NCBI GenBank assembly: GCA_937923965.1
Contig: CALDTL010000021.1
Location: 3,431-67,430, forward strand
Direction of reading: 5' to 3'
Origin: an uncultured Caulobacterales bacterium
Lineage (GTDB): Bacteria; Pseudomonadota; Alphaproteobacteria; Caulobacterales; Maricaulaceae
DNA length: 64,000 nucleotides
The position numbers and the translations under genes are program-made. Below, piece by piece: positions 5,374 through 46,370 of the stretch (the stretch's first letter is position 1; the number at the start of each line of letters is the position of its first letter). The notes below the pieces were generated by a model, which worked only from the letters and a program-made list of their open reading frames with translations, searched no databases and was not told where the DNA came from.

Positions 5374-5388
5374 GCACTACTGTAGTGT
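5374..5388. promoter_or_regulatory. Candidate palindromic operator, site 1 (GCACTAC-T-GTAGTGT)
   Basis: Near-perfect 7-1-7 inverted repeat in the divergent intergenic region; matches sites at 24041, 25056 and 46356. Confidence 0.5.
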
Positions 5389-5546
5389 TTTTTTAATTTT
5401 ATATATTATTAATTGTTTCTGCATATCTAAAATCAAGATACGAAATCATCGAACTGATGAAGTCGTTTGGTGGGATCGCGGTTTCAGTGTCAATTAGACC
5501 TGCACTCAAACAATTTTAATGAGCCCAACATTCGCGATGAATAGAT

Positions 5547-5777
5547 ATGCCCATTCCGTGGAGCCCGAATATGGTTGGCTATAGAAAAATGCCAGATATT
5601 CTCACAACGCCACGGCGAGATGCGATTGGATTTGCGGCGACTCTGGCAATCCCATCGCCTTCGCATTCCGCTAACTATACCTATTCCAAGAAAAGCGCTG
5701 TCCGCACTGCGGCAGGAATGACGGTTGGGAACACCAATCATGATACAACTTCTTGTTATCCCGCGAGAAAACTATGA
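5547..5777 (+). CDS. Possible small ORF (76 aa) coupled to the downstream gene
   Basis: Stop TGA overlaps the downstream ATG (ATGA at 5774-5777); twin-arginine-like segment [14 protein letters not shown]. No recognisable family. Confidence 0.2.
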
Positions 5778-8700
5778 CTCTTAGCCGAGTCGTCGTGAAG
5801 TGCCGCGCAGTTCCCCGCATGGTTGCGGCGGCATCGGTCCTATTCTTATTCAGTGCGGAATTAGCGCTCGCGGCGACACTGACCGTAACCAATACGAATG
5901 ACACCGGGACAGGCTCGCTCCGACAGGCAATTCTGGATGCCAATGCGACGGTGGACGTCGACACGATTCAGTTTGGTATCAGCGGGGCCGGTCCGCATAC
6001 GATCAATCTAAGTTCTGTGCTTCCTGTTATCACGGATGACGGATTGACTATCGACGCGACCACCGAGGACGGCGCGAGCTGCGGCACCACGACCAACGCC
6101 AATGACGGCGTCAGCGACCGTGCGTTGAAAGTTTTTATAAATGGAACAAACTCGGGCAACCCAACGCTAGACACAATTACAGTGACCGCTAGAAATGTGA
6201 CCATCATGGGGATTGCGGTCGGGGATGGGCGCGATGATGTGATGCGTTTAAATGGCGCGGACGGCTTTACGCTACTTTGTTCGCATGTCGGTGTGCGGGC
6301 AGATGGGATTACGGCAGATCCTGGAAATGACGTCGGTATTCTGATAGAAAACTCAGACAGTATCGTTATCGGTGACGGTACGCTAGCTGGACTAAACGTA
6401 ATTTCCGCAAATATAGGCTCGGGGTTAGAGTTCACTGCAGGCACCTCTGCCAATCCTGTTATAAAGGGCAACTTCATCGGTCTCGCTATCGACGGTATTT
6501 CGGACCGAGGAAACGGGATGGATGGGGTGCGGCTTGACTCAGTGACCGGCGCAATCATCGGTGATGCCTTAGGGGGCGGGAACGTGATTTCGGGTAACAC
6601 GGGTGACGGTCTCAATGTCTCCAACGGCGCTACGGCAATGGTGCTCGGCAACTTCATCGGTTCGAACGCCAATGGCACCAGCGCGGTTCCCAATGGAGGT
6701 AACGCGGTGGAGGTCAATACCAACAATACTTCTGCAGATATTGGCGACGGGACGACGAACGGGCGTAACTATCTAACCTCAAACACCTTGTCAGCAGGTG
6801 TCCAACTGTCGAATTTCGCAAGCGCGATGATCGACGGCAACTGGTTTGGGGTCGGTTCGGACAGCAGCGCGATTGGGAATGGTGCGGGTATCCGCGTCTC
6901 TGGCAGCAGCACCGCCAAGATTACTAGAAACACGATCGCCAATTCCGATTTCAGTGGGGTTAGATTAGATGGCACTGCTGGTAACACGGCGATATACGCC
7001 AATTCTATACATACAAATGGCGGGCAGGGAGTGGATCTTGGCTTTGACGGTGTGACCACAAATGACAGCGGAGATGGCGACAGTGGGCCGAACGATCTAT
7101 TGAATTTTCCAGTCATTGATGCGATCATCGCTGATGGAACTAGTAGCGTCGAATACGCGGTCACCCTCGACGTGCCCGATAACAGTCCCGATAATTATCG
7201 CATCGAATTTTTTAAAAATACGGCTTTGGAAACCTACGGCGAAGGCGAGATATATCTTGGTAGCGTGGATGTATCCCATAATGGCGGAAGCCAGAGCTAC
7301 GCCGGAGTTTTTTTGGCCAATACCGCTGTATCTATTGGTGATTATATTTCCGCCACAACGACACGCGAGGCAAGTGACTCTTCCTATGATATCACATCTG
7401 AATTTTCCCAAACGGTAGAGGCGATCCGCACGCCTTTGATCGTTACGACTACAAGTGATAGCGGCGCGGGCACTCTGCGTGCCGCGATCGAATATGCGAA
7501 TGCTAACACAGATAAGGACGATATAACTTTCGCCGTCCCGGGCCCCGGTCCGCATGCGATTACGCTTTCATCTGCGCTTCCAGCCATATCAGACGAAGGT
7601 GTCAGCATTGACGGCACAACTCAGGACGGCACGACATGCGGGGATTTGTGGGCGGGTGTCCCGCGCACGCTTAAAGTGGAAGTCGACGCAAATGATGGTA
7701 TCTTCAACGCGTTTTCAATTTCAGGCGCCGACGTCGCGATAAGAGGAATTGCCATTCAGGGGGTAAATTGGGTGAGCGGGAATGGGGTGAATGCCGTTAA
7801 ATTCCTGTCAACGTCAGCAAATGGTCTATTACAATGTTCCTATCTTGGGCTTCACGCCGACGGGTCGGACGCAGGGGCCGCATCCGCAGGTTTTTCAGGT
7901 GTCTTTGTTCAGGGTGACTCTATTCAAATCGGCGGGAGCGCCGAAGGAGATGGCAATGTCATCGCAAATTCCCAGAGCGCCGGCATTCGCACAGAGGACG
8001 GCGCCTTTGATCTGATTGTCGAAGGTAATTTTATCGGAACCGATTCGACGGGCTCGGCGGCGCGGCCAAATGCCGGGGGCGTCCTCGCGGCTAGCGGGTC
8101 GGCGACCTACAGACATATTCGCAACAACCTAATCTCTGGCAATAGCTCGCACGCGATTTCTGCTGGTTCAGCAGGAACTCTGACCGGATCTTCAGGTGAT
8201 TTTGTCATCGCTGGAAATTACATTGGTGTGAACCGGCTTGGAAATACATTGATGACCAATATTGGCGATGGGATCCATTTCGCCTCTGGCTCGGTCTCAG
8301 GGGTGACCATTGGCGGGACGAACGCCGCCGACCGAAACATAATTTCAGGGAATACCAACTCTGGTGTTTCGCTGAATGGCGTCAGCGCCGTAGAAATCCT
8401 TGGTAACTATATCGGGATGGGTGCGGATGGAAGCACAGGCTTCGGGAATAGCGAGCACGGTATTTTTGCGTCTGGCGTAACCGGCTTGAACATCGGCAAC
8501 GGTACTGGCAACGGTCGCAATGTGATTGGATCCAATGTTCGAAGCGGCATTTATCAGACCAATGTAAATGATGGCGTCGTCATCGATGGTAATTACATTG
8601 GTATTGCGGCCGATGGTTTAACGGCCCGCGGAAATGGAGATGGGTATCGGGGCAGCGGAATTACATTCAATAGCGCAATTTCTGACGGGGATATTATCCG

Positions 8701-10243
8701 CGGAAATGTTATCTCTGCAAATGGTGATTCCGGGATAGATGAACGCGCCAGCACAATCAGTAATCTTACAATTCTAGGGAATTACATCGGCACGGATGCT
8801 GCAGGTCAGCTGGATCGAGGTAATGATTACTTCGGTATTGTTTGGTATGGCGGTGATGTGGTGAATACGATTATTGGTGCGTCGGGCGCGGGTAATATTA
8901 TCGCAAGTTCTAAATTCGGTAGCGGTCTGGAGTTCTACTCTGGATCTCACATTATTCGCGGAAATTCTATCGGTATTGGCGTCGATGGCACCACGGCGTT
9001 ACCGAATGCAACCTGGGGCGTACGTCTTTATCCAGGGCCGGTCTCACATATCGTGGGCGGGATGGGCGCTGGGGAAGAAAATATCATCTCAGGCGCAGCA
9101 GCCGGATACTCCAATATACTTATTCAGAATGGCGCAGAGGCCTTAGTGAGCGGAAACACGCTGCGTGGTAGTTTGGGCGATGGAATGGAGCTCTCGGGTA
9201 TCGGAACAGTCGTTACTTTTCACAATAATGACGTCTATGTTAATGCTGGTGCAGGACTTGATATCAGCAACCAAGCGCAGCTTATTGCCTTCGATAATAA
9301 CATCACCGCGAACGCAGGCAATGGTGTTCAGCTAACCCCCGATGCAGGAAAAGCCGCCATTTATGGGAATGTCATTTCCGGAAATGGAGAACTAAGCATT
9401 GACCTGAACGAAGACGGGATCACGGCAAATGATATCGGCGATGCTGATTTGGGTGCGAACGAATTACTAAATTTTCCGGTCATCAATGCCTTCACTGTGA
9501 ACGGAACGGAAAATGTTTCTTATGACATAGATCTCGACGTTCCGGCCCATACAAACGGATACCGGATAGATTTGTTTAAAAATGCAGCCGGGGATCCGTC
9601 TGGTCACGGAGAAGGCGACGTCTTCTTGGGGTTCGTTGAAACAGGAAATCATGCAGGTGGAAGTCTCAATTTTTCAGGGAGTTTTTCTGCGATTGAAACC
9701 GTCGAAATCAACGATGTAATCTCTGCGACGACGAGTCGTAAAACAGGGGAGCTGACTTACGATATTACATCTGAGTTTTCTGCGGCTGAGGCGGCCACAT
9801 CATCAGATCCCGCAAGTCTATCTGTCACAAAAACGGTCTCCAATCTTGTTTCCGGTGAATTTTCTATTCCAGGAAATGACATGATTTACACGTTCACAGT
9901 TGTGAACCAGGGCGCTGGTTCCGTGACAGCCGACACAATTGTTTTGATTGATGAGATGCCAGCGGAGATGAGTTTCTTCAATGGAGACTATGACGGACCG
10001 GGCCCGTCAACTGCGAAGATTGGGTTTGAAGAATCAGATACTTCACTAAGCTTCGATCCCGAGGTTGATGCCCTTTATTCTGACGGTAGCGCTAAACCCG
10101 CAGACTTGTCCGAATGTAATTACACACCAAGCGCTGGCTATGACTCGAACGTAAAATTCGTTTGCTTTAATCCGAAGGGCGAAATGTTGGGGGGTGACCC
10201 TGATCCAAATTTTAAAATTAGTTTTCGGGCAAAAATTAAATAG
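5774..10243 (+). CDS. Large secreted beta-helix repeat surface protein with two duplicated modules and a DUF11-like C-terminal domain
   Basis: Sec signal (...SAELALA); [16 protein letters not shown] and [16 protein letters not shown] module starts; many GNFIG/GNYIG coils; C-terminal LSVTKTV...[13 protein letters not shown] 5774 preferred over TTG 5753. Confidence 0.75.
5873..9785 (+). repeat. Intragenic tandem duplication: module A ~5873-7410, module B ~7432-9785
   Basis: Both modules start with the T.T.D.G.G.LR.AI..ANA motif and end with N.LLNFPVI...YRI..FKN...GEG...LG...SATT.R...YDITSEFS. Confidence 0.85.
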
Positions 10244-10272
10244 GACCTCAGACATCGAGGCCAGGCCTCTCG

Positions 10273-10644
10273 TTAGGCCGCGAAAGCCTGACAGAGCTTG
10301 ATCATTAGATTGCGATTGTCGCCGTTATCTATGTTTTTAAAAGCCAGCATGAGTTTTATATCTTGAGATGTTGCAACATTATTTGGGATAAGCTCACCTA
10401 ATGCATGGTTTTTATTTGAAGAGCTCAGGAGGCCTTCAAAGAGGAAATCCGGCGTGATTGAAAAAATATTGCACAATTGCCAAAGACGACTGACCGAAAT
10501 GCGGTTTAAGCCGGTCTCATATTTCTGGACTTGCTGATAGGTGATGTCCATGCGTTCGGCTAGATCTTTTTGTGACATTTTTTGAGCCATGCGAAGCATT
10601 TTTATTTGCTTACCTATGTGGCGCTCGATTTCGTCAAGTTCCAT
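10273..10644 (-). CDS. XRE-family HTH transcriptional regulator (left copy)
   Basis: IGKQIKMLR...SQKDLA...ITYQQVQKYETGLNRISVSRL, the alphaproteobacterial QKYE.G.NR.S subtype. Confidence 0.9.
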   Translation of the reverse strand: MELDEIERHIGKQIKMLRMAQKMSQKDLAERMDITYQQVQKYETGLNRISVSRLWQLCNIFSITPDFLFEGLLSSSNKNHALGELIPNNVATSQDIKLMLAFKNIDNGDNRNLMIKLCQAFAA

Positions 10645-10831
10645 AGATCCCCCTCAAATCAACACGCGATGATTCGGTTGCAATTGGCGTCGCGATAATT
10701 AGCTATAGATTCAACTTTCATCGCTGCAAAGAAGAAATAATACATCCTGCCTATGGGTATGTCATGAGGGTTCGATTTAAGGACTCCCAACGCCGTTCTA
10801 AGGCTGCGGGCGTTGCTGGAATTTCAATCTC

Positions 10832-11563
10832 TTAGTAATCGATAAGGCATTCGCCTATACCTCTAAGCGACGCTGTCGTCCTGTCTGACGTTCCAGTTTT
10901 CAGATATATTCGGCGTAGGTGGCCGTTTACGGTATGCTGTGAAATTCCTATAATATCGCCAATCACTGAGTTGCTCTTTCCATGAGCGACCCAAGTCAAA
11001 ATTTCTTTTTCTCGAATCGTAAGATCGATATTGTTGCTCCTAGATTTCGAATGGAGCTTACAAAAAATTTGGTGAGCGCTTTGGCTTGCCCAATGTAGAT
11101 GTCGAATTTGAGTTTTGGACAGACGGCAATCTGCGTCATTGAAGTGGAAAACCAGACAGCCATTTCTGCCACTCGCTTCAATCACCGGAACAATAATGCC
11201 GTTATGATGATCTCCGAGGTAGAATTTTTTCAACACATGGATTTGGTCTTCCGAAAGATCTAGCTGTGTCTCTGCTTTCGACCAAAAAACGGGGGTATTA
11301 ATCTGAGATGTTCGTTTCTCAAAAGGGCTTCTGAAAAACTTGTGCTGCCTTCGAAATTCAGTGACCTGATCTTGAGAGAAACCTCGAGCGAGAAATAATT
11401 TTTCATTAAAATCGGTCGCGCCTGGTGGGGGCAGATGATGATAACCCATCTTGTCGATGCCCAAGCTTTCAACATACCCGAAAAGGAGATCCCAGACGGA
11501 ATCAGGGGACGTCGTGCAATCGAGTTCATCCAGGAATTTATAAAGTTTAGCCCGTTCTGTCAT
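10832..11563 (-). CDS. LuxR-family regulator with N-terminal sensing-type domain (left copy)
   Basis: C-terminal HTH LTIREKEILTWVAHGKSNSVIGDIIGISQHTVNGHLRRIYLK; N-terminal autoinducer-binding-type fold (PVFW, G-x-IVPV). Confidence 0.9.
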   Translation of the reverse strand: MTERAKLYKFLDELDCTTSPDSVWDLLFGYVESLGIDKMGYHHLPPPGATDFNEKLFLARGFSQDQVTEFRRQHKFFRSPFEKRTSQINTPVFWSKAETQLDLSEDQIHVLKKFYLGDHHNGIIVPVIEASGRNGCLVFHFNDADCRLSKTQIRHLHWASQSAHQIFCKLHSKSRSNNIDLTIREKEILTWVAHGKSNSVIGDIIGISQHTVNGHLRRIYLKTGTSDRTTASLRGIGECLIDY

Positions 11564-11658
11564 TATTCAATCCCCAGTGATTGCCCGCGTCAGGGAGGAT
11601 GACGCGGTTTTAATCTCTCATATCACCTGAGGAATGCCCCCTGTGTGTGATTTGAGGT

Positions 11659-11674
11659 GTTAAAGAATTGTTAG
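11659..11674 (-). promoter_or_regulatory. CtrA-like box upstream of left luxR
   Basis: Minus strand CTAA-CAATTCT-TTAAC, one mismatch to TTAA-N7-TTAAC; GANTC site adjacent at 11675. Confidence 0.45.
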
Positions 11675-11856
11675 GAATCACTGGAAGTGAATACAAGCTA
11701 TAATTGTATCGAAATGTGCCAAAAAATGACTTTTTTTGAGTGATATAGGTTCTTTTCAGCTATTTTTCCCGAGTTGTTGATGTCTGAAGGGATTTTAAGT
11801 GTAATTTCTAAGGTGAATTAGAATCGAATCATCAGCCGTGGCTCTCAAAAAAATCT

Positions 11857-12411
11857 CTAGGGAGTCCCTTTCCGATACTTGGCATTTCGGCCGGAAATAA
11901 TGACGCTGATCGAGTAAGACTTTCGAGGGTCCATATTTGCCATGATTAAACCCGCATTTCCGCTTTCCATTTGACGCAAAAAACCGGCAGCAAAAGCTGG
12001 GTCCATCGAGTTGAAAATTTCTGCCGCTTGTTTGGGTTTCATTGTTTGATACATATCGACCAGATGCTTGATGTCTTCATTGGCAATGGACGTCATGCTT
12101 TTGATGTTAGTGTCTAAAACCGCATTCGCCGCTTCGATTGCCGTCATCTGAGTTTCAAGTTTGGCTTCAACTGCTGTCAAGGCTGTTTCGCGTTTCGCAA
12201 TTTCCTGTTTGCGCAAGTTCAGTCGAGTCATATCGGCTGTAATTGTTTCTAAAACGGCACCGGTTAGGCAGGTTTCATTCGGCTGGCTTGGAGACACGGT
12301 AGGAATGTCGGCGGGTTTTTCCTCAGGCGCGTCGGCCGAGAAGGCGACGGCTCGACTGATCAATAATACGGCGAAGGTAAATCCTATAACCGGAAGAATT
12401 CGTGTTCTCAT
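11857..12411 (-). CDS. motE: MotE-family flagellar protein
   Basis: Signal peptide, coiled coil, then LVDMYQTMKPKQAAEIFNSMDP..AAGFLRQM; flagellar context. Confidence 0.7.
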   Translation of the reverse strand: MRTRILPVIGFTFAVLLISRAVAFSADAPEEKPADIPTVSPSQPNETCLTGAVLETITADMTRLNLRKQEIAKRETALTAVEAKLETQMTAIEAANAVLDTNIKSMTSIANEDIKHLVDMYQTMKPKQAAEIFNSMDPAFAAGFLRQMESGNAGLIMANMDPRKSYSISVIISGRNAKYRKGTP

Positions 12412-12935
12412 GAGGCGGAGCGTTTCACATCTGAAAGATTAATAAGTGTGTCTTGTGACCAATATTCAATTGGTTTTGACGGCGGGTGCAGTTTCTTTTT
12501 GTAATCGTTTAAATCTGAGGCAACCTTCAACAATCCTGAGGCTGTAGCTTGTGCTCTTTCGACGGCGTCCGAAAGTTGCGTGTCTATTAGAGTGTCCAGC
12601 TGTCCACATTGAGCTTTGGCTCGGTCACTGGCCTGTTCTAATTCTGTCACAAGGGCCTCAACCTTTGGCCCCGCATTTTCGCATTTTTCTAGAAGATGAC
12701 GAAGCGTTTCCACAGTCTGCAAAGTGGAGTTCTGTGCCTCTTGCGTCGCGACATGAGTGTCCTCAATTGCCTGGGTAAGAGAAAGGATAGATGCACCCAC
12801 TCCTGTTTTGAGATTGTTCAGTTTTCTGAGGCGACGGCTTAACATCGCACAATATAGACAGGCTAATCCGGATATTAAAATCAATATCATATCTGGGATG
12901 TATGGCGCAATATCGTTCAAATTCGGGATTTGCAT
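12408..12935 (-). CDS. Flagellar-cluster hypothetical protein, single TM plus coiled coil (DUF6468-like)
   Basis: TM ending ...CLYCAMLSRRLRKL, then helical heptads; coupled between fliL and motE. Confidence 0.6.
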   Translation of the reverse strand: MQIPNLNDIAPYIPDMILILISGLACLYCAMLSRRLRKLNNLKTGVGASILSLTQAIEDTHVATQEAQNSTLQTVETLRHLLEKCENAGPKVEALVTELEQASDRAKAQCGQLDTLIDTQLSDAVERAQATASGLLKVASDLNDYKKKLHPPSKPIEYWSQDTLINLSDVKRSAS

Positions 12936-12937
12936 AA

Positions 12938-13459: not shown

Positions 13460-13525
13460 GGAGCTTCTAGAGTCTTTCGTGATGTCTAAACAATCATATG
13501 GTGTTATTTAAGTAAAGCACTTATA

Positions 13526-13541: not shown

Positions 13542-13607
13542 TGCTTTCAGCTCTAATTGATAGTCGCCTTATTGGTGTAAGATTCACTAAACAGAGATGG
13601 CTTCAGG

Positions 13608-23048: not shown

Positions 23049-23148
23049 GATCAATCCTTGATAGTTAACATACTCAATTGAAGATTGTATTCTATCATCA
23101 TTAAATAAGTGTATATTTGCGCTTACAACACATTGGTGCTCTATGCCT

Positions 23149-24032: not shown

Positions 24033-24047
24033 TTAAAATAACACTAA
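24033..24047 (+). promoter_or_regulatory. CtrA-like box in motB/fliM divergent region
   Basis: TTAA-AATAACA-CTAA, one mismatch; overlaps the palindromic site at 24041. Confidence 0.35.
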
Positions 24048-24055
24048 TATGGTGC
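24041..24055. promoter_or_regulatory. Candidate palindromic operator, site 2 (ACACTAA-T-ATGGTGC)
   Basis: Matches the 7-1-7 motif; lies just upstream of the fliM-like gene. Confidence 0.5.
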
Positions 24056-24058: not shown

Positions 24059-25042
24059 GTGACAATTCTTAAAAAGAAACTTGAAATGAAGGCAGATCTT
24101 TCCGGCCGTGCAGTCAATGATGTTGAAGTTTGGAAGCCTCTACATAGCTCTGTGGCCGAGGCCTTCACTGATTTGCTTGGGTTGACTTGGGAGATAGAAA
24201 ATATCGAGTCGACTTCAGGGGTTTGGGATGAAATGCGTTCGTCCATAGCCAGGGACGGGCTCTATTATGGGATGGGGGAACCCGGAGTTCCCTGTCCAGT
24301 TTTAATTGGATTTGACGCTGATTTTGGAGCCTTGGTTTCAGAGAAAAGCTTAAGGTTCTTACCCGCAGCGGATGATGCTACCTATAAACCCAGCTCATTA
24401 GATCTTATCCTTTTCTCGCCAGTGGCAAAGACATTGGAAGCTGAGTTGAAAGAGTTGTTTTCAATTTTAGAGCCTTCAAGACCGGCAAGCTTCGCATTTC
24501 GGAATAAGGGCACAGCTCCAACAGACATTGATTTGCTGAAAGGAATTGAGATTTGGACCAAAGTCATTTTCTCAATTCGAGAGTCGGATGGGGACAGGTT
24601 CGGCGGCCATAGCGACGACGATAGCGAGGCCTCTGACCCGGATAAGGCAGTGCCACGTCGCCGGCTAAATTTCCAAATTATCTTACCTCCAAATTTAGTT
24701 CCTAAGCGTCGATTGCAAGATATAGACCTGGGCCGTCCTGTGGTGCTGAACCTTGATGACCCTTGGACCCAACATATGCGACGTTCGCTGGACGAAGCAC
24801 TCGTTCCGGTGCGGGCCGTGGTTGAGACATGCCGCATGAGTGTGGCCGATTGCACGCGTCTTCACATTGGTCAGATTATACAGCTTCCGGGGGTATCGCT
24901 CCAGTCGGTCAAGCTAGAGACAAAAATGAAAGCAAAATCGGTAGATTTTGGTGTGGGCGCCCTCGGAATCTATAAGTCACATCGCGCGATCAAATTGGCT
25001 GAAGATATATGTTATGAGTTCTCTCAGGAGGTAGATATTTAG
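24059..25042 (+). CDS. fliM: Divergent FliM-like motor switch protein
   Basis: C-terminal SpoA domain (VPVRAVVETCRMSVADCTRLHIGQIIQL...RAIKL); size and position between motB and motA; no other fliM in the window. Start GTG 24059 or ATG 24086. Confidence 0.6.
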   Translation: MTILKKKLEMKADLSGRAVNDVEVWKPLHSSVAEAFTDLLGLTWEIENIESTSGVWDEMRSSIARDGLYYGMGEPGVPCPVLIGFDADFGALVSEKSLRFLPAADDATYKPSSLDLILFSPVAKTLEAELKELFSILEPSRPASFAFRNKGTAPTDIDLLKGIEIWTKVIFSIRESDGDRFGGHSDDDSEASDPDKAVPRRRLNFQIILPPNLVPKRRLQDIDLGRPVVLNLDDPWTQHMRRSLDEALVPVRAVVETCRMSVADCTRLHIGQIIQLPGVSLQSVKLETKMKAKSVDFGVGALGIYKSHRAIKLAEDICYEFSQEVDI

Positions 25043-25055: not shown

Positions 25056-25070
25056 ACACTATTATAGTGT
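25056..25070. promoter_or_regulatory. Candidate palindromic operator, site 3 (ACACTAT-T-ATAGTGT, perfect)
   Basis: Perfect 7-1-7 inverted repeat ~40 nt upstream of motA. Confidence 0.55.
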
Positions 25071-25073: not shown

Positions 25074-25089
25074 TTAATATTTACGTAAC
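25074..25089 (+). promoter_or_regulatory. CtrA-like box upstream of motA
   Basis: TTAA-TATTTAC-GTAAC, one mismatch. Confidence 0.4.
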
Positions 25090-25111: not shown

Positions 25112-25978
25112 ATGAGCTCTATTGTTGGAATAATTATCACCTTTGTCTGTGTTTTCGGCGGGTACATCTTGGCCGGCGGGAAAATGGGCATCATTATGCA
25201 CTCCCTTCCGTTTGAAATGATGATGATAGGAGGCGCTGCTATCGGCGCTTTTGCCTGCGGCAATGACATGCACACAATCAAACATACGTTTAAAGATCTT
25301 GGCGCCGTTTTCAAAGGCGCAAAATGGAAAAAATCTGATTACAACGATCTGCTTTGCTTAATGCATGAGCTGGTCAGAATCGCGAAAGAAAGCCCTGTTG
25401 AGATTGAATCTCATATTGAGGCTCCTGAAGAGTCCTCGCTTTTTCAAAAATATCCAAAAATTCTGAAAGATGGGCCGTTCGTTGAGTTAATCTGCGACAC
25501 AATACGCTCAATGATTATGAACTTTGATGATGTTTATCAGGTTGAGGAGCTTCTAGAAAAACAACTGGATACAATGGTTGCTGAAAGCCTTCACGGGTCT
25601 CATGCGCTTCAGAATATGGCAGATGCGCTGCCAGCTTTGGGAATTGTTGCAGCGGTTCTGGGCGTTATCAAAACGATGGCATCAATTGACAAGCCGCCGG
25701 AGGTTCTTGGCGGTATGATTGGCGGTGCTTTGGTCGGGACTTTCCTTGGTGTTTTCTTGGCTTATGGATTGGTTGGCCCGATGGCAAATAAGGTCAAATC
25801 AATCCGTGAAGAAGAGCATTTCTTCTACTCTTTGATTCAAGGCGTTCTAGTATCCAGTCTACATAACAACCCAACTAATCTTTGCGTAGAGGTCGCGCGA
25901 AGAAGCGCGCCTAAGCATAATCGTCCAAGCTTCATGGATATTGAAGAGTCGCTTAAAGCCCTGAAACAGGCCGCTTAA
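25112..25978 (+). CDS. motA: Flagellar stator protein MotA
   Basis: VFGGYILAGG, PFEMMMIGGAAIG, ADALPALGIVAAVLG, GALVGTFLGVFLAYG. Confidence 0.97.
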   Translation: MSSIVGIIITFVCVFGGYILAGGKMGIIMHSLPFEMMMIGGAAIGAFACGNDMHTIKHTFKDLGAVFKGAKWKKSDYNDLLCLMHELVRIAKESPVEIESHIEAPEESSLFQKYPKILKDGPFVELICDTIRSMIMNFDDVYQVEELLEKQLDTMVAESLHGSHALQNMADALPALGIVAAVLGVIKTMASIDKPPEVLGGMIGGALVGTFLGVFLAYGLVGPMANKVKSIREEEHFFYSLIQGVLVSSLHNNPTNLCVEVARRSAPKHNRPSFMDIEESLKALKQAA

Positions 25979-33675: not shown

Positions 33676-33878
33676 TTTAACAGGTTATTATTATTTGGTG
33701 TGTATCAAGAGGTGCAATCCAGGAAGGGTTGCGCTTGCCGCGTTCGGTTTCATTCGATCAGCCGCAAGCAAAAATGTCAGGATGACTTAGTTTGTTGCAC
33801 TTTATTGAGGTGTGATGGTGTTGAGGTTCTTTCGATCTCATAATTTTTATAAGCGCAAAGCGCATACAGGAAAAACTT

Positions 33879-38261: not shown

Positions 38262-38322
38262 CTGCTTTAACTATAAAAATTCTTGGTTCATTAATACTTC
38301 ATTCAACTATGTGGTGTATTTC

Positions 38323-38338
38323 TTAGTTAATCGTTAAC
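38323..38338 (+). promoter_or_regulatory. CtrA-like box in fliI/flgB divergent region
   Basis: TTAG-TTAATCG-TTAAC, one mismatch. Confidence 0.5.
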
Positions 38339-38725: not shown

Positions 38726-38788
38726 GACCCTTCGGCGCCCGTCAGGATGACGCGTGCCCCCATTCAACATTAAATGCGGGAGGCGTTT

Positions 38789-39196: not shown

Positions 39197-39511
39197 ATGG
39201 ACCCTGTCTCGTTAGGTGCTGCGCGTCAGTATCAAATCGCTAAACAAGCTCTCGGGCCAGAAAGCCTCAAGGGCGCCGCAAAAGCCGCAGGAAATGAGGC
39301 TGCGAAATCTCCGATGTCGCAAGGCATTCAGGAGTTTTCGCAGATATTCGAAAAAGTTGAGATTACAACTCAAGCCATGAGCGTGGGGCAGGGCGACGCC
39401 CATGCGGTCGTTGAGGCTATGGCCACTGCTGAGGTGGCATTGGAAACGGCCGTGACAATACGAAATCGGGTCGTTGAAGCGTATCAAGAGTTACTGAGAA
39501 TGCCGGTTTAA
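39197..39511 (+). CDS. fliE: Hook-basal body protein FliE
   Basis: AEVALETAVTIRNRVVEAYQELLRMPV. Confidence 0.93.
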   Translation: MDPVSLGAARQYQIAKQALGPESLKGAAKAAGNEAAKSPMSQGIQEFSQIFEKVEITTQAMSVGQGDAHAVVEAMATAEVALETAVTIRNRVVEAYQELLRMPV

Positions 39512-39777
39512 TGTCCGAAACAGACATCTTATCGGTTCTCCAGGAATTTTTGTGGGGCGCGGCATTGATGGCGTTGCCTCTGTTGGCGGCAGCCCTTATC
39601 GTGGGCTTGGTTGTTGGGTTATTGCAAGCACTGACGGGCATCCAAGAGATGACCCTTACCTTTGTTCCAAAACTCGCTGTCATGTTGCTCGTCTTCTTCA
39701 TTTCCGCCGGATATATGGCCCGTATTTGTGTCAGCCTTTTTGACAATCACGTCATTCCCGTGATCGCCGGAACTTAA
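39511..39777 (+). CDS. fliQ: Export protein FliQ
   Basis: VGLVVGLLQALTGIQEMTLTFVPK. Confidence 0.95.
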   Translation: MSETDILSVLQEFLWGAALMALPLLAAALIVGLVVGLLQALTGIQEMTLTFVPKLAVMLLVFFISAGYMARICVSLFDNHVIPVIAGT

Positions 39778-39788
39778 GCTCGCGCGAT

Positions 39789-41873
39789 ATGCCAAAGTTA
39801 ACATTATCGTCCTTTAACAACCCGACGGTTTTTCTCGCCATGGGGCTGATGATGATCATCATTATGATGGTCTTGCCGGTTCCATCATGGATCCTAGATG
39901 CCGGTCTCACCGTGTCTTTTGCTTTTGCAATCCTGATTTTTACAATTGTGTTATTTATTGAGCAGCCGCTGGACTTTTCCTCCTTTCCTGCCGTTCTCTT
40001 GGCGTCTTTGCTCTTGCGTTTATCGCTGAATATTTCGTCTACTAAATTGATAATTGGCGAAGGTCATACTGGGTCAGGCGCGGCCGGAGGCGTCATCGAA
40101 GGGTTCGCCATGTTTATAATGGGGGGCAACATCTTCATTGGCCTGATCGTGTTCTCGGTCCTCGTCATCGTGAATTTTATGGTCATTACGAAAGGCGCAG
40201 GCCGCATGGCGGAAGTCGGTGCGCGCTTCGCCTTAGATGCCATGCCTGGCAAGCAAATGGCGATTGATGCAGATCTGGCTGCTGGGGCAATCAGCCATGA
40301 GGAAGCCCGCCTTCGGCGGACAAGAGAGCAAGAGGAAACAGCCTTTCTCGGGTCTTTAGACGGCGTATCAAAATTCATGAAGGGCGACGCCATTGCGGGC
40401 ATACTGATCACTTTGCTGAATCTGATCGCGGGCATTGCCATTGGGGTCGGCGTTCACAAAGTTGGCTTTGGCGAGGCGATGAAAAATTACTCCATCCTGA
40501 CCGTAGGAGATGGGTTGGTTTCGCAGATTCCAGCCGTAATCATTTCCATTGCTGCGGGCTTGTTGCTCGCGAAAGGTAAAGGTGAGGGGACGGTTGATCT
40601 TTCGCTGTTTAAGCAATTTGCTCAATATCCTTCGGCTTTGATGGCGGTCTCGGGGATTATGCTGATTTTTGCATTCTTTCCGGGACTTCCCTTTATTCCA
40701 TTTATGATCGGTGCGCTTGTTCTCGGCTATGTCGCCTACCGATCGATTATGTCTTCAGAAGCTGAGAAGGAAAGTCAGGAACAGACTGAAAAAATCGAAC
40801 AAGACGCTCCGTCGGAACCGCTCTTGGGCGATGCTATGGATATTGATGAAGTACATGTTGAGTTGTCGAAAGAGCTTGTTCCTGTCGCCATGAGCGAAGA
40901 TTTTGGGTTCGATAAGAGAGTTGAAAAAATACGAAAATATGTTGCAACCGAATTTGGTTTCATTTTGCCATCCATCCGGTTGACCGATAACACACAGCTC
41001 GAAGCCAATACATATCGTATAAATATTCAGGGCTCTGAGGTCGCGAGTAATCTGCTGCATCCACGTCATATTCTCGCGTTGATGGAGACCGCAGACAATC
41101 CAGAAATCCCAGGTATAAATACCCGAGAGCCGGTCTATAATGCGCCGGCCCGCTGGGTCGGAAAAGAGCATCAGGACGAGTTAATGATGCTCGGTGTTCC
41201 CACAGTTGAGGTCACGGAAGTTCTGGCGACGCATCTGTTAGAAACAGTTCAGGCGAATTTCACGAAACTTCTGACACGCCGATCATTGCGCGAAACTTTG
41301 GACACATTCAAGGACGTCACAGATCCCGACCGCGCTGCCTCAAATAAGAAAATCCTAGAAGAGTTTCTACCGGATAAGGTTCCTATGGAAAGTCTTCAAG
41401 CCGTCTTGCGACTTCTTTTGGAGGAACGAATTTCCATTCGTAATATTCCGGTTATCTTGGAAACTATTGCCGAGGCCCGGGGTTCATTGACGGCGCCCGA
41501 TCAAATCGCTGATTTTGTGAGACGACGTCTCAGTTACCAATTTGTGACCAAATTACGTGATAGTCAGGGTCGGTTGCCTTTGGTGCAAATCGGGCCAGAT
41601 TGGGAGACACAATTTTCTTCACATGAAATCGCTGACGGGTCGGGCCGAACAGACATCGCTTTGCCGCCCGATGAGTTCAATCGCCTTGCGAACTCTGTTA
41701 AATCCCAATTGGATCAATCAGCCACCCAAGGTCATTTTGCTGCCGTTGCGACAAGTGCGAAACGGCGACGTTTTTTGAAGACAGTTTTATCTGCAAAGGG
41801 TATTCGAAATCCCGTCATATCTTATGAAGAGATCACGGCGACCGAACGTCCGGCGATTGTCGGCGTGGCCTAA
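39789..41873 (+). CDS. flhA: Export gate protein FlhA
   Basis: RLSLNISSTKLI, TKGAGRMAEVGARFALDAMPGKQMAIDADL, LTVGDGLVSQIPA. Confidence 0.98.
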   Translation: MPKLTLSSFNNPTVFLAMGLMMIIIMMVLPVPSWILDAGLTVSFAFAILIFTIVLFIEQPLDFSSFPAVLLASLLLRLSLNISSTKLIIGEGHTGSGAAGGVIEGFAMFIMGGNIFIGLIVFSVLVIVNFMVITKGAGRMAEVGARFALDAMPGKQMAIDADLAAGAISHEEARLRRTREQEETAFLGSLDGVSKFMKGDAIAGILITLLNLIAGIAIGVGVHKVGFGEAMKNYSILTVGDGLVSQIPAVIISIAAGLLLAKGKGEGTVDLSLFKQFAQYPSALMAVSGIMLIFAFFPGLPFIPFMIGALVLGYVAYRSIMSSEAEKESQEQTEKIEQDAPSEPLLGDAMDIDEVHVELSKELVPVAMSEDFGFDKRVEKIRKYVATEFGFILPSIRLTDNTQLEANTYRINIQGSEVASNLLHPRHILALMETADNPEIPGINTREPVYNAPARWVGKEHQDELMMLGVPTVEVTEVLATHLLETVQANFTKLLTRRSLRETLDTFKDVTDPDRAASNKKILEEFLPDKVPMESLQAVLRLLLEERISIRNIPVILETIAEARGSLTAPDQIADFVRRRLSYQFVTKLRDSQGRLPLVQIGPDWETQFSSHEIADGSGRTDIALPPDEFNRLANSVKSQLDQSATQGHFAAVATSAKRRRFLKTVLSAKGIRNPVISYEEITATERPAIVGVA

Positions 41874-42676
41874 TGGATTTCCTGACAAATTTCTCTGATG
41901 TCATATTGGAGAATATTCTTCTTCTCGTACCTGTCATTGCGATTTTCACTCGTCTGTCCATTTTTATCTATTTGCTTCCCGGCGTCGGCGAGACGGTCAT
42001 ACCGCAGCGCATAAGGCTTGGCATGGCCTTCCTTATTACATGGATTCTCGTGCCCCTTATATTGCCAAACCTGACGGTTCCAAATCTCACGCTGCAAGCG
42101 GGGGCTTTGTTAATTGTGAAGGAAGGGTTTTATGGATTTGTTCTGGGGTTCGCTTTCCGATTGATGGTTTTTACCTTGCAAATTCTAGGGAATATTGTGT
42201 CTCAGGCCTTGTCAATTTCTCAAGTTCTGGGCGAAGGCATAGCAACGGAGCCAAACACGACAATCAGCACACTGCTTATGATGGCTGGCGCGACATTACT
42301 CGTAACGATGGACCTACATATTGAGGCAATTGGTGTTTTTTACCGGAGCTATGAGGTTTTTCCGATCGGCAGCGCACCAAATTTGGATAATATTGCCTAT
42401 TGGATGACGCATAAAGCCATGGGAACGATCAGTTTTGCTGTGACTCTCGCGCTGCCTTTTATCATATTGAACTTTGTCTATAATTTGATGCTGGGATTCC
42501 TTAATCGCGCCATGCCTCAGCTTATGGTGTCTTTCGTTGGCATGCCTGCCATCACTGGAGCAGGCTTGTTCCTCATGGTTATCGCGACGGGGAGTATATT
42601 GCTGTTTTGGGCGCAGGAATATTGGACATCCTTTAATGGATTTCAGGACCTGTCCAATTATGGGTTTCCGCAATGA
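41873..42676 (+). CDS. fliR: Export protein FliR
   Basis: LPGVGE..IP.RIR, LNRAMPQLMVSFVGMP; multiple TMs. Confidence 0.92.
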   Translation: MDFLTNFSDVILENILLLVPVIAIFTRLSIFIYLLPGVGETVIPQRIRLGMAFLITWILVPLILPNLTVPNLTLQAGALLIVKEGFYGFVLGFAFRLMVFTLQILGNIVSQALSISQVLGEGIATEPNTTISTLLMMAGATLLVTMDLHIEAIGVFYRSYEVFPIGSAPNLDNIAYWMTHKAMGTISFAVTLALPFIILNFVYNLMLGFLNRAMPQLMVSFVGMPAITGAGLFLMVIATGSILLFWAQEYWTSFNGFQDLSNYGFPQ

Positions 42677-43755
42677 GTGGCGGGGGCGATAATGATGGTC
42701 AGGAAAAGTCCTTTGATGCATCTGAGTCAAAGATTAAAAAATCACGGGACAAAGGCGATACGCCGCAGTCAAAAGAAGCCAATACATTTATGCTCTATGC
42801 GAGCCTTATGGTTGTGATCGCCATGGTGGGCGGGAGTGTAACACAACAGTTATTTTCCTCTATGTCAGTTATGCTCTCTCGTCCTTCTGAGCTGGGCACC
42901 ATGTTACTCCAAGATCAGGACGCTGTTCCATTTAGAGGCCTATTAAGCGCGATTGTCGTTGCGATGGGACCCGTGTTCCTCATACCCATGGTTTTTATCC
43001 TGATTTCGCTCGTTATCCAGCAGGCTATCGTTGTTGCGCCAGAGAAAATTAAACCAAAACTGTCTCGCATTTCGCCAATCTCCAATGCCAAACAAAAATA
43101 CGGGCCCACGGGTATGGTTGAGTTTCTCAAGCAATTTGCGAAGCTATCTTTCATAGCGGCTATTGCGGGGTTGTTCTTTTACCAAGCCTTTTATGAACTC
43201 GCAGGGCTCAGCTCGACATCCCCTCATACGCTTTTGGGGGAGATGAAACGTGTGACGTTAAAATTGACGCTATATATTCTCGTCGCCACGGCTTTGATAA
43301 CTCTGGTGGATCTCCCCTATGCGCGATTTGCGCATATGAAAAAATTGCGGATGACGCTCCAGGAAGTGAAAGATGAGTCTAAAGAGAGCGAAGGTGATCC
43401 TCATATGAAACGAGCGCGCCGTATGCGCGCAGAAGAAATTTCCAAATCAAACATGCTGCGAGATGTCGCTCAAGCGGACGTGATTATTGTAAACCCAACG
43501 CATTACGCGGTTGCGCTCCAGTGGTCGCGTGACACAGGCACTGTGCCGCTTTGTGTTGCCAAAGGTACGGACGAACTCGCGATGCGTATTCGAGAGCGCG
43601 CAGCTTTACATGACATACCCATTCACTCTGACCCGCCCTGCGCCCGGTCTCTTCACGCTGTTGTGGAGATTGGAGAGGGGATTAAACCCGAACATTATGC
43701 GGCGGTCGCGGCGGCTATTCATTTTGCCGACTCGGTGCGTCCTAAGGATTATTAA
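42673..43755 (+). CDS. flhB: Export switch protein FlhB
   Basis: EKSFDASESK, EVKDESKESEGDP, autocleavage motif NPTHYAVAL. Confidence 0.97.
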   Translation: MSGGGDNDGQEKSFDASESKIKKSRDKGDTPQSKEANTFMLYASLMVVIAMVGGSVTQQLFSSMSVMLSRPSELGTMLLQDQDAVPFRGLLSAIVVAMGPVFLIPMVFILISLVIQQAIVVAPEKIKPKLSRISPISNAKQKYGPTGMVEFLKQFAKLSFIAAIAGLFFYQAFYELAGLSSTSPHTLLGEMKRVTLKLTLYILVATALITLVDLPYARFAHMKKLRMTLQEVKDESKESEGDPHMKRARRMRAEEISKSNMLRDVAQADVIIVNPTHYAVALQWSRDTGTVPLCVAKGTDELAMRIRERAALHDIPIHSDPPCARSLHAVVEIGEGIKPEHYAAVAAAIHFADSVRPKDY

Positions 43756-43762
43756 GGCCAGC

Positions 43763-44182
43763 ATGAGCAAGTTAACAAAGATCGCCAAAATTCTTACGCT
43801 TCAACGAACCATCTGCGAGAGAGAGATTGCCGCATTGCGGATGAAAATGGCGGGCCACAATATAGAAATCCTCAAAATCCAGACGGAAATTAATGTGAAA
43901 AGCGATATGTGTTTCTCTGGAATTTCGGCCGAGGGCCCTATCCGGGAGGCGAGACAATTTGCGACATGGAATGAGCTAATGCGTGAAAAATTATTAGAAT
44001 TATCTGCGCAGAATGCTGAGCTTTCCAATCTTCTAAACATGAGGAAGGCTGCTCTCAAAGCATTGATTGTAAAAGAAGACCTCATTACGTCTCAGTTGGC
44101 TCACCGAGACTTTGTTGCCTTGGAGACACGGCTTCAGGGGGAAGCAGATCTCCGCCTCGAGCATTGGGTAATGTCCCGGTAA
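43763..44182 (+). CDS. Coiled-coil protein after flhB, possible FliJ-like chaperone
   Basis: 139 aa from ATG 43763, fully helical heptads, 7 nt after flhB; no other fliJ candidate in the cluster. Confidence 0.5.
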   Translation: MSKLTKIAKILTLQRTICEREIAALRMKMAGHNIEILKIQTEINVKSDMCFSGISAEGPIREARQFATWNELMREKLLELSAQNAELSNLLNMRKAALKALIVKEDLITSQLAHRDFVALETRLQGEADLRLEHWVMSR

Positions 44183-44325
44183 ATAATTACACTGCCGCCC
44201 GCAAAAAAGGGGGAGGAAGGGGTTAGTTAATTTGTGCTAGTGTGCTTGACTGGGCTCGAATGCCCTGGGCTGGGTAAGTTCTGTTTGGCGTGATATTGAT
44301 TACTAAAGGTTGTGTCGCGGGCAAC

Positions 44326-44340
44326 TGAAAAATCCTTTAA
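44326..44340 (+). promoter_or_regulatory. CtrA-like box with adjacent TGTCGCG (SciP-type motif at 44313-44319)
   Basis: TGAA-AAATCCT-TTAA, one mismatch, upstream of ORF 44350. Confidence 0.25.
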
Positions 44341-44349
44341 GGGGGAAAT

Positions 44350-44739
44350 ATGAACACTTCATTGAAGATGGATTCTGATGTGAATTCTGATGTGAGTGCG
44401 GTAGATGTTGATCTTGTTATTACGCAAGACAATAGATCGATTAAGGACATCATTGATGAGTACAAGGCCATTACAATAAAGTTGAGTTTATTGGCTGATA
44501 ATGTTCCGGGCACGGAAGAAGAAAATGTAGAAGATCTTATCAAGAAGGAAATTTTCCTTTTAGATCGCCGTGCGGCGCTTCTCGAAACAGCACTTTCACG
44601 GCCTGTTACGAGCCATGATGGAGCCGTAGAAATTTTAGCACTCTGGCATCTTGAGGTTATCCAAAGTCAAACCGCCGACAGTCTTTCGGCCGCTGATGAA
44701 TTGGTCAAATCCGTGTACGATTACCTCAAAATCAACTGA
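44350..44739 (+). CDS. Hypothetical acidic helical protein
   Basis: 129 aa, purine-rich RBS, 29 nt before the XRE gene. Confidence 0.6.
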   Translation: MNTSLKMDSDVNSDVSAVDVDLVITQDNRSIKDIIDEYKAITIKLSLLADNVPGTEEENVEDLIKKEIFLLDRRAALLETALSRPVTSHDGAVEILALWHLEVIQSQTADSLSAADELVKSVYDYLKIN

Positions 44740-44768
44740 TACTGCATCTAGCTGCAAGGAGGGTTCAT

Positions 44769-45134
44769 ATGCCCACCAATAATTCTAATCGGACTGCCAC
44801 TATAATTGACGAATATGTTGGCAGTCGTTTGAAGTCACTGCGAATGGATAGGGGAGTCAGCTTGAATGAGCTGGGTGAATTAGTTGATGTTTCATATCAG
44901 CAAATCCAGAAATACGAAAATGGGTCAAATCGAATTAGTGTCGGTCGCTTATGGGACTTTTGTAAAGTTTTTGAGGTCGTGCCAAATTACTTTTTCTTGG
45001 GGTTATGGGATAAAAATGAAGGCCGGTTCCATGATACTGACTTTATCAGAGCTCGGCACTCATTTAGGCAAGCCAGGACGGCCCATGCCGCGTTAAATGT
45101 CGGGTCTGGAACGAGCCGGGTGCTCTCTCGCTAA
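44769..45134 (+). CDS. XRE-family HTH transcriptional regulator (right copy)
   Basis: VGSRLKSLR...VSYQQIQKYENGSNRISVGRL. Confidence 0.9.
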   Translation: MPTNNSNRTATIIDEYVGSRLKSLRMDRGVSLNELGELVDVSYQQIQKYENGSNRISVGRLWDFCKVFEVVPNYFFLGLWDKNEGRFHDTDFIRARHSFRQARTAHAALNVGSGTSRVLSR

Positions 45135-45254
45135 CGAGGTTTCCCAGCTCAATAACATTGATCTAATCAGCGCGCCCGGGGGACAACGAGAGGCCTATCA
45201 AAATAGTCGATAAAAATTAACCAAATTAACCCTCTATTAGTTCTTTAAACAATA

Positions 45255-45374
45255 TACACCAAATACGGGAGTTTACAGCCGCTCTCGTATCCCGAATAAA
45301 TCCCATTGAATTGGGTGATATTCATCCCTCGATCGGCCTGACAGCCTTCCCAAAGGGGCTTGTCAGGCCTTTTT
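45255..45374 (+). ncRNA. Candidate small RNA with three stem-loops
   Basis: Stems ATACGGGAG/CTCTCGTAT, GAATA..CCCA/TGGG..TATTC, then a terminator hairpin. 5' end is a guess. Confidence 0.35.
45335..45374 (+). terminator. Intrinsic terminator
   Basis: GGCCTGACA/TGTCAGGCC stem extended by GCCTT/GGGGC, followed by TTTTT. Confidence 0.8.
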
Positions 45375-45580
45375 CGTGTGACGTTAACGCCCTTTGTCTC
45401 GAAAACAAACTGCCCCCAATGGCGCGACGCGATTAGCCCTTTATTCTTTCGCTCTCTGCGAGTAGCTATTTTTGGGTAGTCTTGATTCGATACCTGTTAG
45501 CCATGGGTGATTGACACGGGATTGACCGAGGCTGCTCAAACAACATCCCGGACTTTAATCGACGTTGCAAAGGGGAGGAT

Positions 45581-46282
45581 ATGGGTATTATTTCCGCTTT
45601 AGATGATCCAGACTTTCCCGCTGAGGTATTCTGTACACTAGGGAAAAATCCTGTGACGCCAAACAGCAGCGCCTTAGCGTTAGCGACGCTTTGGGAATAT
45701 CTCAGGTGCAATAATTTTAATGGATTCGGGTATTACCTATTCGACGTGACGACAGGTCAGCGAATAGCGCGGCAGGCACGATATAAAAGGTTAAATGAGT
45801 CCCAAGCTTTCAGCGTTTTTGACACGGTCCTGGAGGAGGTATTTTCTGCCGACCTGTCACAAGAGTCTGAGATCAAAACCAATGACGGCGCCGGGGCATT
45901 GTTGATTTATCCCGTTTATGGCCCGCATTACCAAAATGCAGTTTTTATTGTTGAAATGGAGTCCTTACCTAACTTGAGTATAGGAGATCTGCGTTGGAAT
46001 TTGGGCGCGGTTCTCCAGCAAGTTCATGTTACCATTGCGAAATCGGACTCATTGGCGCGACAGGCGGAATATTCACTTTCCCCCCGAGAGACAGAGGTTT
46101 TGACGTTGATGTCCCGGGGGCAGAGCAATCGTTCGATCGCCGAGAGTTTGGGGTTATCTGTTTACACGATAAATGCTCATGTTCGAAATCTCATGTTGAA
46201 GCTGGGTGAAACCGATCGGGTGAGTGCTTGTATCAGGGGATTGACGGTGCTCAGCGGATCAAGCGGGAATAATGCGCAGTAA
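45581..46282 (+). CDS. LuxR-family regulator (right copy), divergent N-terminal domain
   Basis: LSPRETEVLTLMSRGQSNRSIAESLGLSVYTINAHVRNLMLKLG; GGAGG RBS. Confidence 0.88.
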   Translation: MGIISALDDPDFPAEVFCTLGKNPVTPNSSALALATLWEYLRCNNFNGFGYYLFDVTTGQRIARQARYKRLNESQAFSVFDTVLEEVFSADLSQESEIKTNDGAGALLIYPVYGPHYQNAVFIVEMESLPNLSIGDLRWNLGAVLQQVHVTIAKSDSLARQAEYSLSPRETEVLTLMSRGQSNRSIAESLGLSVYTINAHVRNLMLKLGETDRVSACIRGLTVLSGSSGNNAQ

Positions 46283-46355
46283 CCAGATGGTTTCCGCAAA
46301 GAGAGATCATTAGATAATTCGCCTACATTCACAGGGCGTTTACTTTTTTGTTGAT

Positions 46356-46370
46356 ACACCATTATAGTGT
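46356..46370. promoter_or_regulatory. Candidate palindromic operator, site 4 (ACACCAT-T-ATAGTGT)
   Basis: 14/15 identical to the motA site; 17 nt upstream of ATG 46388. Confidence 0.55.

Follow-up and report, generated by a model that had tools for sequence, protein, structure and literature searches.

A stretch of 64,000 nucleotides from an uncultured Caulobacterales bacterium (contig CALDTL010000021.1 of assembly GCA_937923965.1; this whole stretch is called the window below) carries a 15-base palindrome that recurs beside genes of the flagellar motor and beside genes of surface proteins. This raises the question of whether the recurrence has a function and, if so, which protein reads the palindrome. 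The 64-kb window is a flagellar gene cluster, and its bearer is a Hellea/Maricaulaceae-like member of the Caulobacterales: the MotA protein shows 89% identity to one from a Maricaulaceae metagenome-assembled genome and 88% to a Hellea sp. protein. The gene context is taken from a listing of open reading frames (ORFs) and from Pfam scans of the window, in which intergenic DNA amounts to 5.4 kb (about 8%). Comparison with shuffled DNA and with related genomes shows the palindrome to be a real, non-random, selected and clade-specific cis-element at orthologous flagellar promoters, and it very probably works as a protein-binding operator. As to the protein, we lean, on slightly better than even terms, towards a dimeric regulator of the XRE family (Cro/CI type), most likely XRE2, which is encoded together with orf129 in the flagellar cluster.

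The first-pass annotation of the window had reported four palindromes, starting at 5374, 24041, 25056 and 46356. They are present exactly so, and all four are intergenic. They are given here with the two motor genes concerned and with their scores in a matrix built from relatives, which is described below.

5374..5388, no strand assigned: site 1, GCACTACTGTAGTGT, in the 737-nucleotide gap between two divergent genes for beta-helix proteins; 15.1 bits.
24041..24055, no strand assigned: site 2, ACACTAATATGGTGC, between motB (reverse strand) and fliM (forward strand); 19.1 bits.
24059..25042, forward strand: fliM, start revised to the GTG at 24059; Pfam domain FliMN_C.
25056..25070, no strand assigned: site 3, ACACTATTATAGTGT, a perfect palindrome 41 nucleotides upstream of the motA ATG; 23.4 bits.
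25112..25978, forward strand: motA; Pfam domains MotA_N and MotA_ExbB.
46356..46370, no strand assigned: site 4, ACACCATTATAGTGT, 17 nucleotides upstream of the orf139 ATG (46388); 22.8 bits.

The start of fliM is placed at GTG 24059, and not at ATG 24086, because of N-terminal homology: the resulting VTILKKKL aligns with MSILRKKL in the relative L002 and MSILQKKL in L001. From the end of site 2 to this GTG there are 3 nucleotides. On the other side of the site, motB (23946/23997) probably also has a start other than that of its longest ORF, namely the internal methionine of MTEEVRP... (about 23946), since relatives align only from there. Site 1 lies 340 nucleotides from one of the flanking start codons and 382 from the other, and is followed by a run of seven T. 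Site 4 is flanked by a GerE-type LuxR gene and by orf139, a small orphan secreted-protein gene, downstream of which lie a 353-residue ORF and then a 1750-residue RTX/PPC protein.

The consensus of the sites is ACACYA-N3-TRGTGT, 15 bases with a CACYA-N3-TRGTG core. Positions 2–4 (CAC) and 12–14 (GTG) are invariant in 17 or 18 of 18 sites; A stands at position 1 in 17 of them, and T or C at position 15. Position 5 is Y, position 11 is R, and the centre consists of three bases that are A or T. Only part of the sites have complementary inner pairs (5/11 in 6, 6/10 in 11 and 7/9 in 9 of the 18), and folding of the sites as RNA is weak (−2.6 to −4.6 kcal/mol, z −0.5 to −2.2). Because the outer bases are invariant, the inner ones uncompensated and the RNA folding weak, the palindrome points to a dimeric DNA-binding protein that would read two ACACYA half-sites, and not to a hairpin. 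As expected of an XRE operator of the Cro/CI type, it is short and twofold-symmetric, has conserved outer half-sites around a variable AT-rich centre, and lies in promoter regions, where it overlaps or abuts predicted core promoter elements. The earlier proposal of an operator-type site for a dimeric regulator is upheld, as far as sequence can tell, by the invariant outer half-sites, the uncompensated centre and the orthologous promoter positions.

Several known elements were compared with the palindrome and set aside. The lux and tra boxes are 18–20 bp long, of even length and of the CTG...CAG or GTG...CAC type; a site of 15 bp, odd-centred and of the form CAC-N7-GTG, is neither. The palindrome itself has no TTAA halves, which rules out a CtrA box (TTAA-N7-TTAA(C)), and it misfits the established consensus sequences of sigma-54, sigma-28, LexA, Fur and CRP sites. 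An intrinsic terminator or structured RNA hairpin is ruled out by the weak folding, the uncompensated inner pairs and the lack of an Rfam match. Finally, it departs from the exact PraR/CdxA box, CAAC-N5-GTTG, in having C and not A at position 3. The first-pass annotation is thus right to set the motif apart from lux boxes, CtrA boxes and sigma54 elements. A literature search with the motif string found no papers.

In principle the sites could lack any regulatory role and be AT-rich inverted repeats due to chance, hairpins in RNA or remnants of terminators; they are short, their middle is AT-rich and a run of seven T follows site 1. Shuffle controls speak against this. Scored with a symmetrised weight matrix derived solely from 14 sites of other genomes (the relatives-only matrix), the four sites of the window come out as its best four matches over the 64 kb, followed by a match of 12.3 bits. 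Four matches of at least 14 bits arose in none of 2000 dinucleotide shuffles of the intergenic 5.4 kb (mean 0.02). The palindrome is therefore not as frequent in shuffled sequence as in the window, a check that had been proposed along with it. The 7-nucleotide half-site WTRGTGY is likewise over-represented between genes, with 16 occurrences where shuffles give 4.0 ± 2.0, and all strong matches are intergenic. The consensus first proposed gives 4 matches against 0.01 expected, a test that is circular. With the orthologous conservation described next, the weak RNA folding and the uncompensated inner positions, the explanation by chance or by hairpins is effectively refuted.

The converse matrix, with the four window sites as its only input, was run on 1.56 Mb around motA homologues. 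It finds matches of at least 15 bits only in the closest relatives (L001, L002, L004 and L086-88); about 1.4 Mb of other Hyphomonadaceae and Rhodobacterales flagellar loci hold no such match, the best score elsewhere being 14.3 bits. The motA site lies 41–43 nucleotides upstream of the motA ATG in L001, L002, L008 and L086, so that the expected conservation upstream of motA orthologues is indeed found, and L004 has a variant with altered spacing. The fliM site ends exactly 3 nucleotides before the start codon in L001 (8921) and L002 (8890), as in the window, and lies 24 nucleotides upstream of it in L086. L086 has five sites in 20 kb, at flgB/fliI, at the XRE operon, at a gene for a 475-residue response regulator, at motA and at fliM.

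Four weaker sites had also been suggested, near fliL, flgE, fliI/flgB and an RTX gene. Three of them correspond to the following features.

13490..13504, no strand assigned: weak site ACAATCATATGGTGT, fliL/fliF divergent region; 12.3 bits (relatives-only matrix).
23098..23139, no strand assigned: region upstream of flgE, two degenerate sites with their good halves facing inward (AAGTGT ... ACAC).
38303..38317, no strand assigned: variant site TCAACTATGTGGTGT, fliI/flgB divergent promoter region; it shares the left half CAAC with the PraR operator.

Orthology supports the fliI/flgB site, which is kept as TCAACTAT.TGGTGT in L081 (170) and L174 and is replaced at the same place by a full site, ACACTTATATGGTGT, in L086 (3306). 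The sites at flgE are degenerate, but the one suggested at 23125 belongs to a conserved pair of everted half-sites, GTGT-N12-ACAC in L001, L002 and L004, with a spacer of N14–15 in the window and in L008 (five genomes). The fliL site, at 12.3 bits, scores below the four main sites, and no relative spans its region, in which an isolated second half-site lies at 13572. The site proposed at 48044 by the RTX gene, at about 6 bits, is unsupported. Another isolated half-site, TTATTTGGTGT(G/A)TA, occurs at 33691-33706, just past the stop of the gene before flagellin and about 190 nucleotides upstream of the flagellin ATG; it is kept at the equivalent place in L001, L002 and L008.

Two of the flagellar sites have a CtrA-like box directly downstream.

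25074..25089, forward strand: CtrA-like box TTAATATTTACGTAAC, 3 nucleotides downstream of site 3 (motA).
38323..38338, forward strand: CtrA-like box TTAGTTAATCGTTAAC, TTAG-N7-TTAAC, 5 nucleotides downstream of the flgB variant site; kept in L081 and L174.

A perfect TTAA-N7-TTAA is absent from the window. Its intergenic DNA has three CtrA-like boxes with one mismatch, and each of them overlaps a palindromic site or sits at most 5 nucleotides from one. The motA box reads TTAA-N7-GTAAC in L001, L002, L004, L008 (there with ATAAAC) and L086 and lies 38–39 nucleotides from the ATG, and the gap between palindrome and box is 3–4 nucleotides across genomes; this fixed spacing in five genomes confirms that a CtrA-like box abuts the motA site. 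The third box (24033-24047) does overlap the fliM site in the window, as had been noted, but it is lacking in L001 and L002 and is therefore rejected as a conserved feature.

The proximity to promoter elements also allows another explanation, namely that the palindrome is mainly a core-promoter element whose centre and right half (TATAGT, TAATAT, CTATAT-like) form a −10 hexamer, the flanks being read by RNA polymerase or by an alternative sigma factor. The centre does resemble a −10, and at site 4 a −10-like TATAGT overlaps the palindrome, its partner being a −35-like TTTACT at 18-nucleotide spacing (TTTACT-18-TATAGT, 46339-46368). A −10 inside the fliM site would yield a leaderless mRNA from the GTG 3 nucleotides downstream, and the 41–56 nucleotides to the start codons elsewhere would make normal 5′ untranslated regions. 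On the contrary, it is the symmetric outer ACAC/GTGT that is most conserved whereas the AT-rich centre varies freely, and twofold symmetry is unexpected for a sigma-factor element. The CtrA-type box at motA and flgB would moreover fall after the transcription start, which misfits its fixed distance of 38–39 nucleotides to the ATG, and a sigma-70 promoter scan does not rise above shuffle expectation. This explanation is quite improbable, and the operator remains the preferred reading.

Which protein would bind the operator? The window encodes four regulators of interest, and a partner gene of one of them.

10273..10644, reverse strand: XRE1, a 123-residue paralogous HTH_3 protein, adjoining LuxR1.
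10832..11563, reverse strand: LuxR1, with an autoinducer-binding domain and a GerE domain.
44350..44739, forward strand: orf129, partner gene upstream of XRE2.
44769..45134, forward strand: XRE2, a 121-residue HTH_3 protein.
45581..46282, forward strand: LuxR2, with a GerE domain only, between a small RNA candidate and site 4.

XRE2 is the best candidate. In L004, L086-88, L170 and L172 the motif lies 35–73 nucleotides upstream of an operon of two or three genes, of which the first is an orf129 homologue and the second an XRE2 homologue. Among the relatives examined, this operon is always within the flagellar cluster, usually after flhB, and no other regulator gene recurs in all of their flagellar clusters; orf129 is always paired with an XRE gene. 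The XRE proteins of flagellar clusters form a group (VS[FY]QQIQKYE.G.NRISVGRLW) distinct from the group linked to rbfA/infB (VTFQQIQKYERGTNRIGASRLW). The closest solved structure to XRE2 by sequence is C.BclI (E = 2.4e-4). A metagenome scan with XRE2, which serves as a negative control, gave only homologues of at most 54% identity, with no motif nearby. The earlier suggestion that a local XRE protein is the binder thus stands in that XRE2 is the best candidate and that the motif precedes the operons of relatives; it is weakened by the window itself, which has no site upstream of orf129. On balance, XRE2-type proteins are somewhat more likely than not to bind the palindrome.

Further observations concern the operon and its surroundings. 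In L169, a run of N (about 9455-9555) occupies exactly the place where a site upstream of the orf128-XRE genes is expected, and the sister contig L170 has the site ACACTATTAGCGTGT there. The third gene of the operon, where present, belongs to the orf141 family (L086 10299-10724; L004 16382-16831, reverse strand; L171 610-1008; L173 664-1095), which has a conserved LSAPLxGxCPGRPP motif and no Pfam hit and is absent from the window, L081 and L174. The orf129 protein matches no Pfam family either; its AlphaFold model is a four-helix protein (predicted local distance difference test score 68) for which Foldseek finds nothing in the PDB below E = 0.4, and only 59 representative clusters among 1.84 billion proteins belong to its family. 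SciP, another possible binder, is rejected: no gene for it occurs here, and its family is of the DUF1153 type, not HTH_3.

The nearest known system is that of the PraR/PhrR/CdxA group of XRE proteins, which bind the palindrome CAAC-N5-GTTG according to SELEX (PMC5527310). The PraR operator and the present palindrome are both odd-centred, with a 13-bp span and outer CA...TG (PMC5527310), and the proteins concerned, from Rhizobium leguminosarum, Azorhizobium caulinodans and Caulobacter, are like XRE2 small HTH_3 proteins of about 95–140 residues. Members of the family repress promoters, among them those of their own genes, and regulate secreted adhesins as well as attachment to surfaces (PMC5527310; PMC4149787; PMC10688885). 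Their recognition helix, QQIQKYE, is shared by the rbfA/infB-linked homologues found here, and the P0007-type proteins are putative PraR/CdxA orthologues. Upstream of the rbfA/infB-linked XRE gene in L082-L085 (about 4610 in L082) we found CAACATGGATTGG, one mismatch from CAAC-N5-GTTG, which fits a classical PraR specificity of this paralogue. The present system differs from that of PraR in three respects: the half-site is CACYA and not CAAC, only the flgB variant having a CAAC half; the XRE2 gene lies in the flagellar cluster with a dedicated partner, orf129, whereas the PraR/CdxA gene lies in a conserved housekeeping neighbourhood; and the conserved targets, unlike those of PraR/CdxA, are flagellar promoters beside CtrA-like boxes. 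Although the palindrome has the architecture of the PraR operator, classing it as a PraR box would be wrong.

There are precedents for the control of motility or adhesion by XRE proteins, namely XrpA (PMC11999139) and CdxA, RtrA and PraR (PMC10688885). XrpA of Cereibacter sphaeroides is a 120-residue XRE repressor of the Fla2 flagellum, which lowers the expression of CtrA-dependent flagellar genes (PMC11999139). By description it resembles XRE2 (about 120 residues, with an N-terminal HTH), its C-terminus being short and helical (PMC11999139). XrpA acts indirectly, via the control regions of ctrA and chpT, whereas the sites described here are on the flagellar promoters themselves; it has no defined operator sequence, and its gene depends on RpoN3. 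In the SinR/SinI and CinS/PraR pairs, an XRE repressor and a small partner act at a motility or attachment decision point (PMC10688885), as orf129 beside XRE2 might; neither by sequence nor by fold does orf129 detectably resemble SinI, CinS or any Pfam or PDB entry, and an antagonist role for it would be pure inference. Another comparison is with the C proteins of restriction-modification systems. These are dimers on short palindromes of the GACT-N3-AGTC type, which they use to activate and to repress. The context of the present sites is without restriction-modification genes, and both half-site and spacing differ (ACT-N5-AGT here versus ACT-N3-AGT in C-boxes).

If XRE2-type dimers bind the palindrome, the mechanism could be as follows. 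At motA and flgB/fliI, a dimer bound at the −35 region, just upstream of the CtrA box, would modulate CtrA-dependent transcription by interfering with CtrA or RNA polymerase. At fliM, where the site lies 3 nucleotides before the start codon, and at orf139, where it lies over a −10-like hexamer, binding would occlude initiation. In relatives the regulator would also control its own operon, the neighbouring small RNA candidate and the response-regulator gene, and in the genome of the window two further sites would put the operon of the secreted and RTX proteins and the genes of the beta-helix proteins under the same control. On the simplest model the net effect would be repression, since initiation would be occluded at fliM and orf139, as with PraR, CdxA/RtrA and XrpA; we give repression somewhat less than even weight. 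The dimer may instead activate from about −45, as lambda cI does. The regulon conserved between genomes would comprise flagellar genes, the XRE operon, the candidate small RNA and the response regulator.

Some observations weigh against XRE2 as the binder, or against the mechanism above. The window and its nearest subclade (L081 and L174) have no site upstream of orf129, but just one that is weak or degenerate and lies downstream of the XRE gene, so that autoregulation is not universal. The recognition helices (F/Y-QQIQKYE) of the flagellar-cluster and the rbfA/infB-linked XRE proteins are nearly identical; the preference for ACAC over CAAC is therefore unexplained by the helix, and another XRE protein could bind. 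At motA and flgB the sites are upstream of the −35 region, whereas the fliM site is at the start codon; with such heterogeneous placing the sign of regulation is a guess. No genome but this one shows sites 1 and 4. None of the RNA runs among the sequencing runs searched for the locus contains its sequence; the DNA runs that contain it come from strains more than 99% identical and thus give no footprinting information.

These points bear on the possibility that the operator is real and its binder is another protein: XRE1, the housekeeping PraR/CdxA-like XRE protein linked to rbfA/infB, a LuxR-type protein or a factor encoded outside the window. XRE1 is 35% identical to XRE2 and its recognition helix, TYQQVQKYE, is almost the same, as is that of the rbfA/infB-linked protein; a separate matrix scan of 643 kb around other or distant XRE homologues, including the rbfA/infB-linked loci L082-85, found no motif and gave nothing above 13.6 bits, which brings the more distant flagellar or XRE loci lacking a comparable match to about 2 Mb. 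A LuxR-type binder is suggested by LuxR genes that adjoin the XRE module in the window, in L169 and in L174, and by the position of site 4 directly after LuxR2, but a 15-bp, odd-centred CAC...GTG motif is unlike a lux or tra box, the five-site stretch of L086 has an XRE gene and no LuxR gene, and L004 has sites and the XRE operon in its flagellar cluster with no LuxR gene in 20 kb. We consider another binder the less likely alternative, though one to be taken seriously, and keep XRE2 as the preferred one.

The link between motor and surface proteins, put forward in the first-pass annotation, stands in part. Sites 1 and 4 score as high as flagellar sites and are therefore probably functional in this genome. 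The link is weakened in that both are known from this genome alone, no relative spanning the region of site 1, that orf139 has no homologue in 5.8 billion proteins and that site 1 is 340–382 nucleotides from the genes on either side. The parallel with the repression of the secreted Rap adhesins by PraR is suggestive only.

For the stalked Caulobacterales of the sea (Hellea, Maricaulaceae and Robiginitomaculum-like genera), whose flagellar regulation is unstudied, a defined operator and a candidate regulator are now at hand. The palindrome is a new operator motif and defines a candidate new regulon of a known regulator family, an ordinary kind of switch and not a new mechanism. The conserved regulon on offer consists of motA, fliM/motB, flgB/fliI, the XRE operon, the candidate small RNA and the response regulator. 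Together with the composite promoters, which have an XRE site and a CtrA-like box, they suggest how control by the master regulator of the cell cycle could be joined to a local XRE switch at one and the same promoter. The regulator would add to the PraR/CdxA group a member of altered specificity (CACYA for CAAC), useful for studying the divergence of paralogous XRE proteins. A much bolder and rather improbable reading is that orf129, XRE2, the small RNA candidate and, in relatives, orf141 make up a clade-specific checkpoint of flagellar assembly on composite XRE-CtrA promoters. The orf129 protein would then be an anti-repressor reporting the state of assembly, as in FlgM/sigma-28 or FliX/FlbD, and the checkpoint would replace the sigma-54/FlbD tier of Caulobacter and couple motor and switch to adhesin expression.

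The small RNA candidate lies downstream of the XRE operon.

45229..45378, forward strand: small RNA candidate; a degenerate site (ACCCTCTATTAGTTC), then a structured element of about 130 nucleotides and a terminator.
In relatives: L081 7042-7195; L174 about 11766-11960; L087 1927-2050; L171 1033-1155; L173 1105-1225; L004 16262-16368 (reverse strand).

The window candidate has three hairpins and a strong terminator (−47.5 kcal/mol, z = −5.1). The same order of site, structured stretch of about 100–130 nucleotides and terminator recurs downstream of the XRE operon in the window, L081, L174, L087, L171, L173 and L004, with a sequence that is only loosely conserved. The candidate has no match in Rfam, and RNAalifold predicts no pairs from an alignment that is too poor.

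A different element, the 11-mer GTCAGGATGAC, occurs twice in the window, at 33776-33786 (about 100 nucleotides upstream of the flagellin ATG) and at 38741-38751 (between flgB and flgC). A crude pattern search of the window found no CsrA-like ORF. The 11-mer is a 4-3-4 hairpin or palindrome with GGA in its loop, resembling a CsrA-type RNA site, and it is kept at both places in relatives (L001 19190; L002 19127; L008 18530, a variant; L081 607). The sole Rfam match in the window is a tRNA gene at 59919-59989 on the forward strand.

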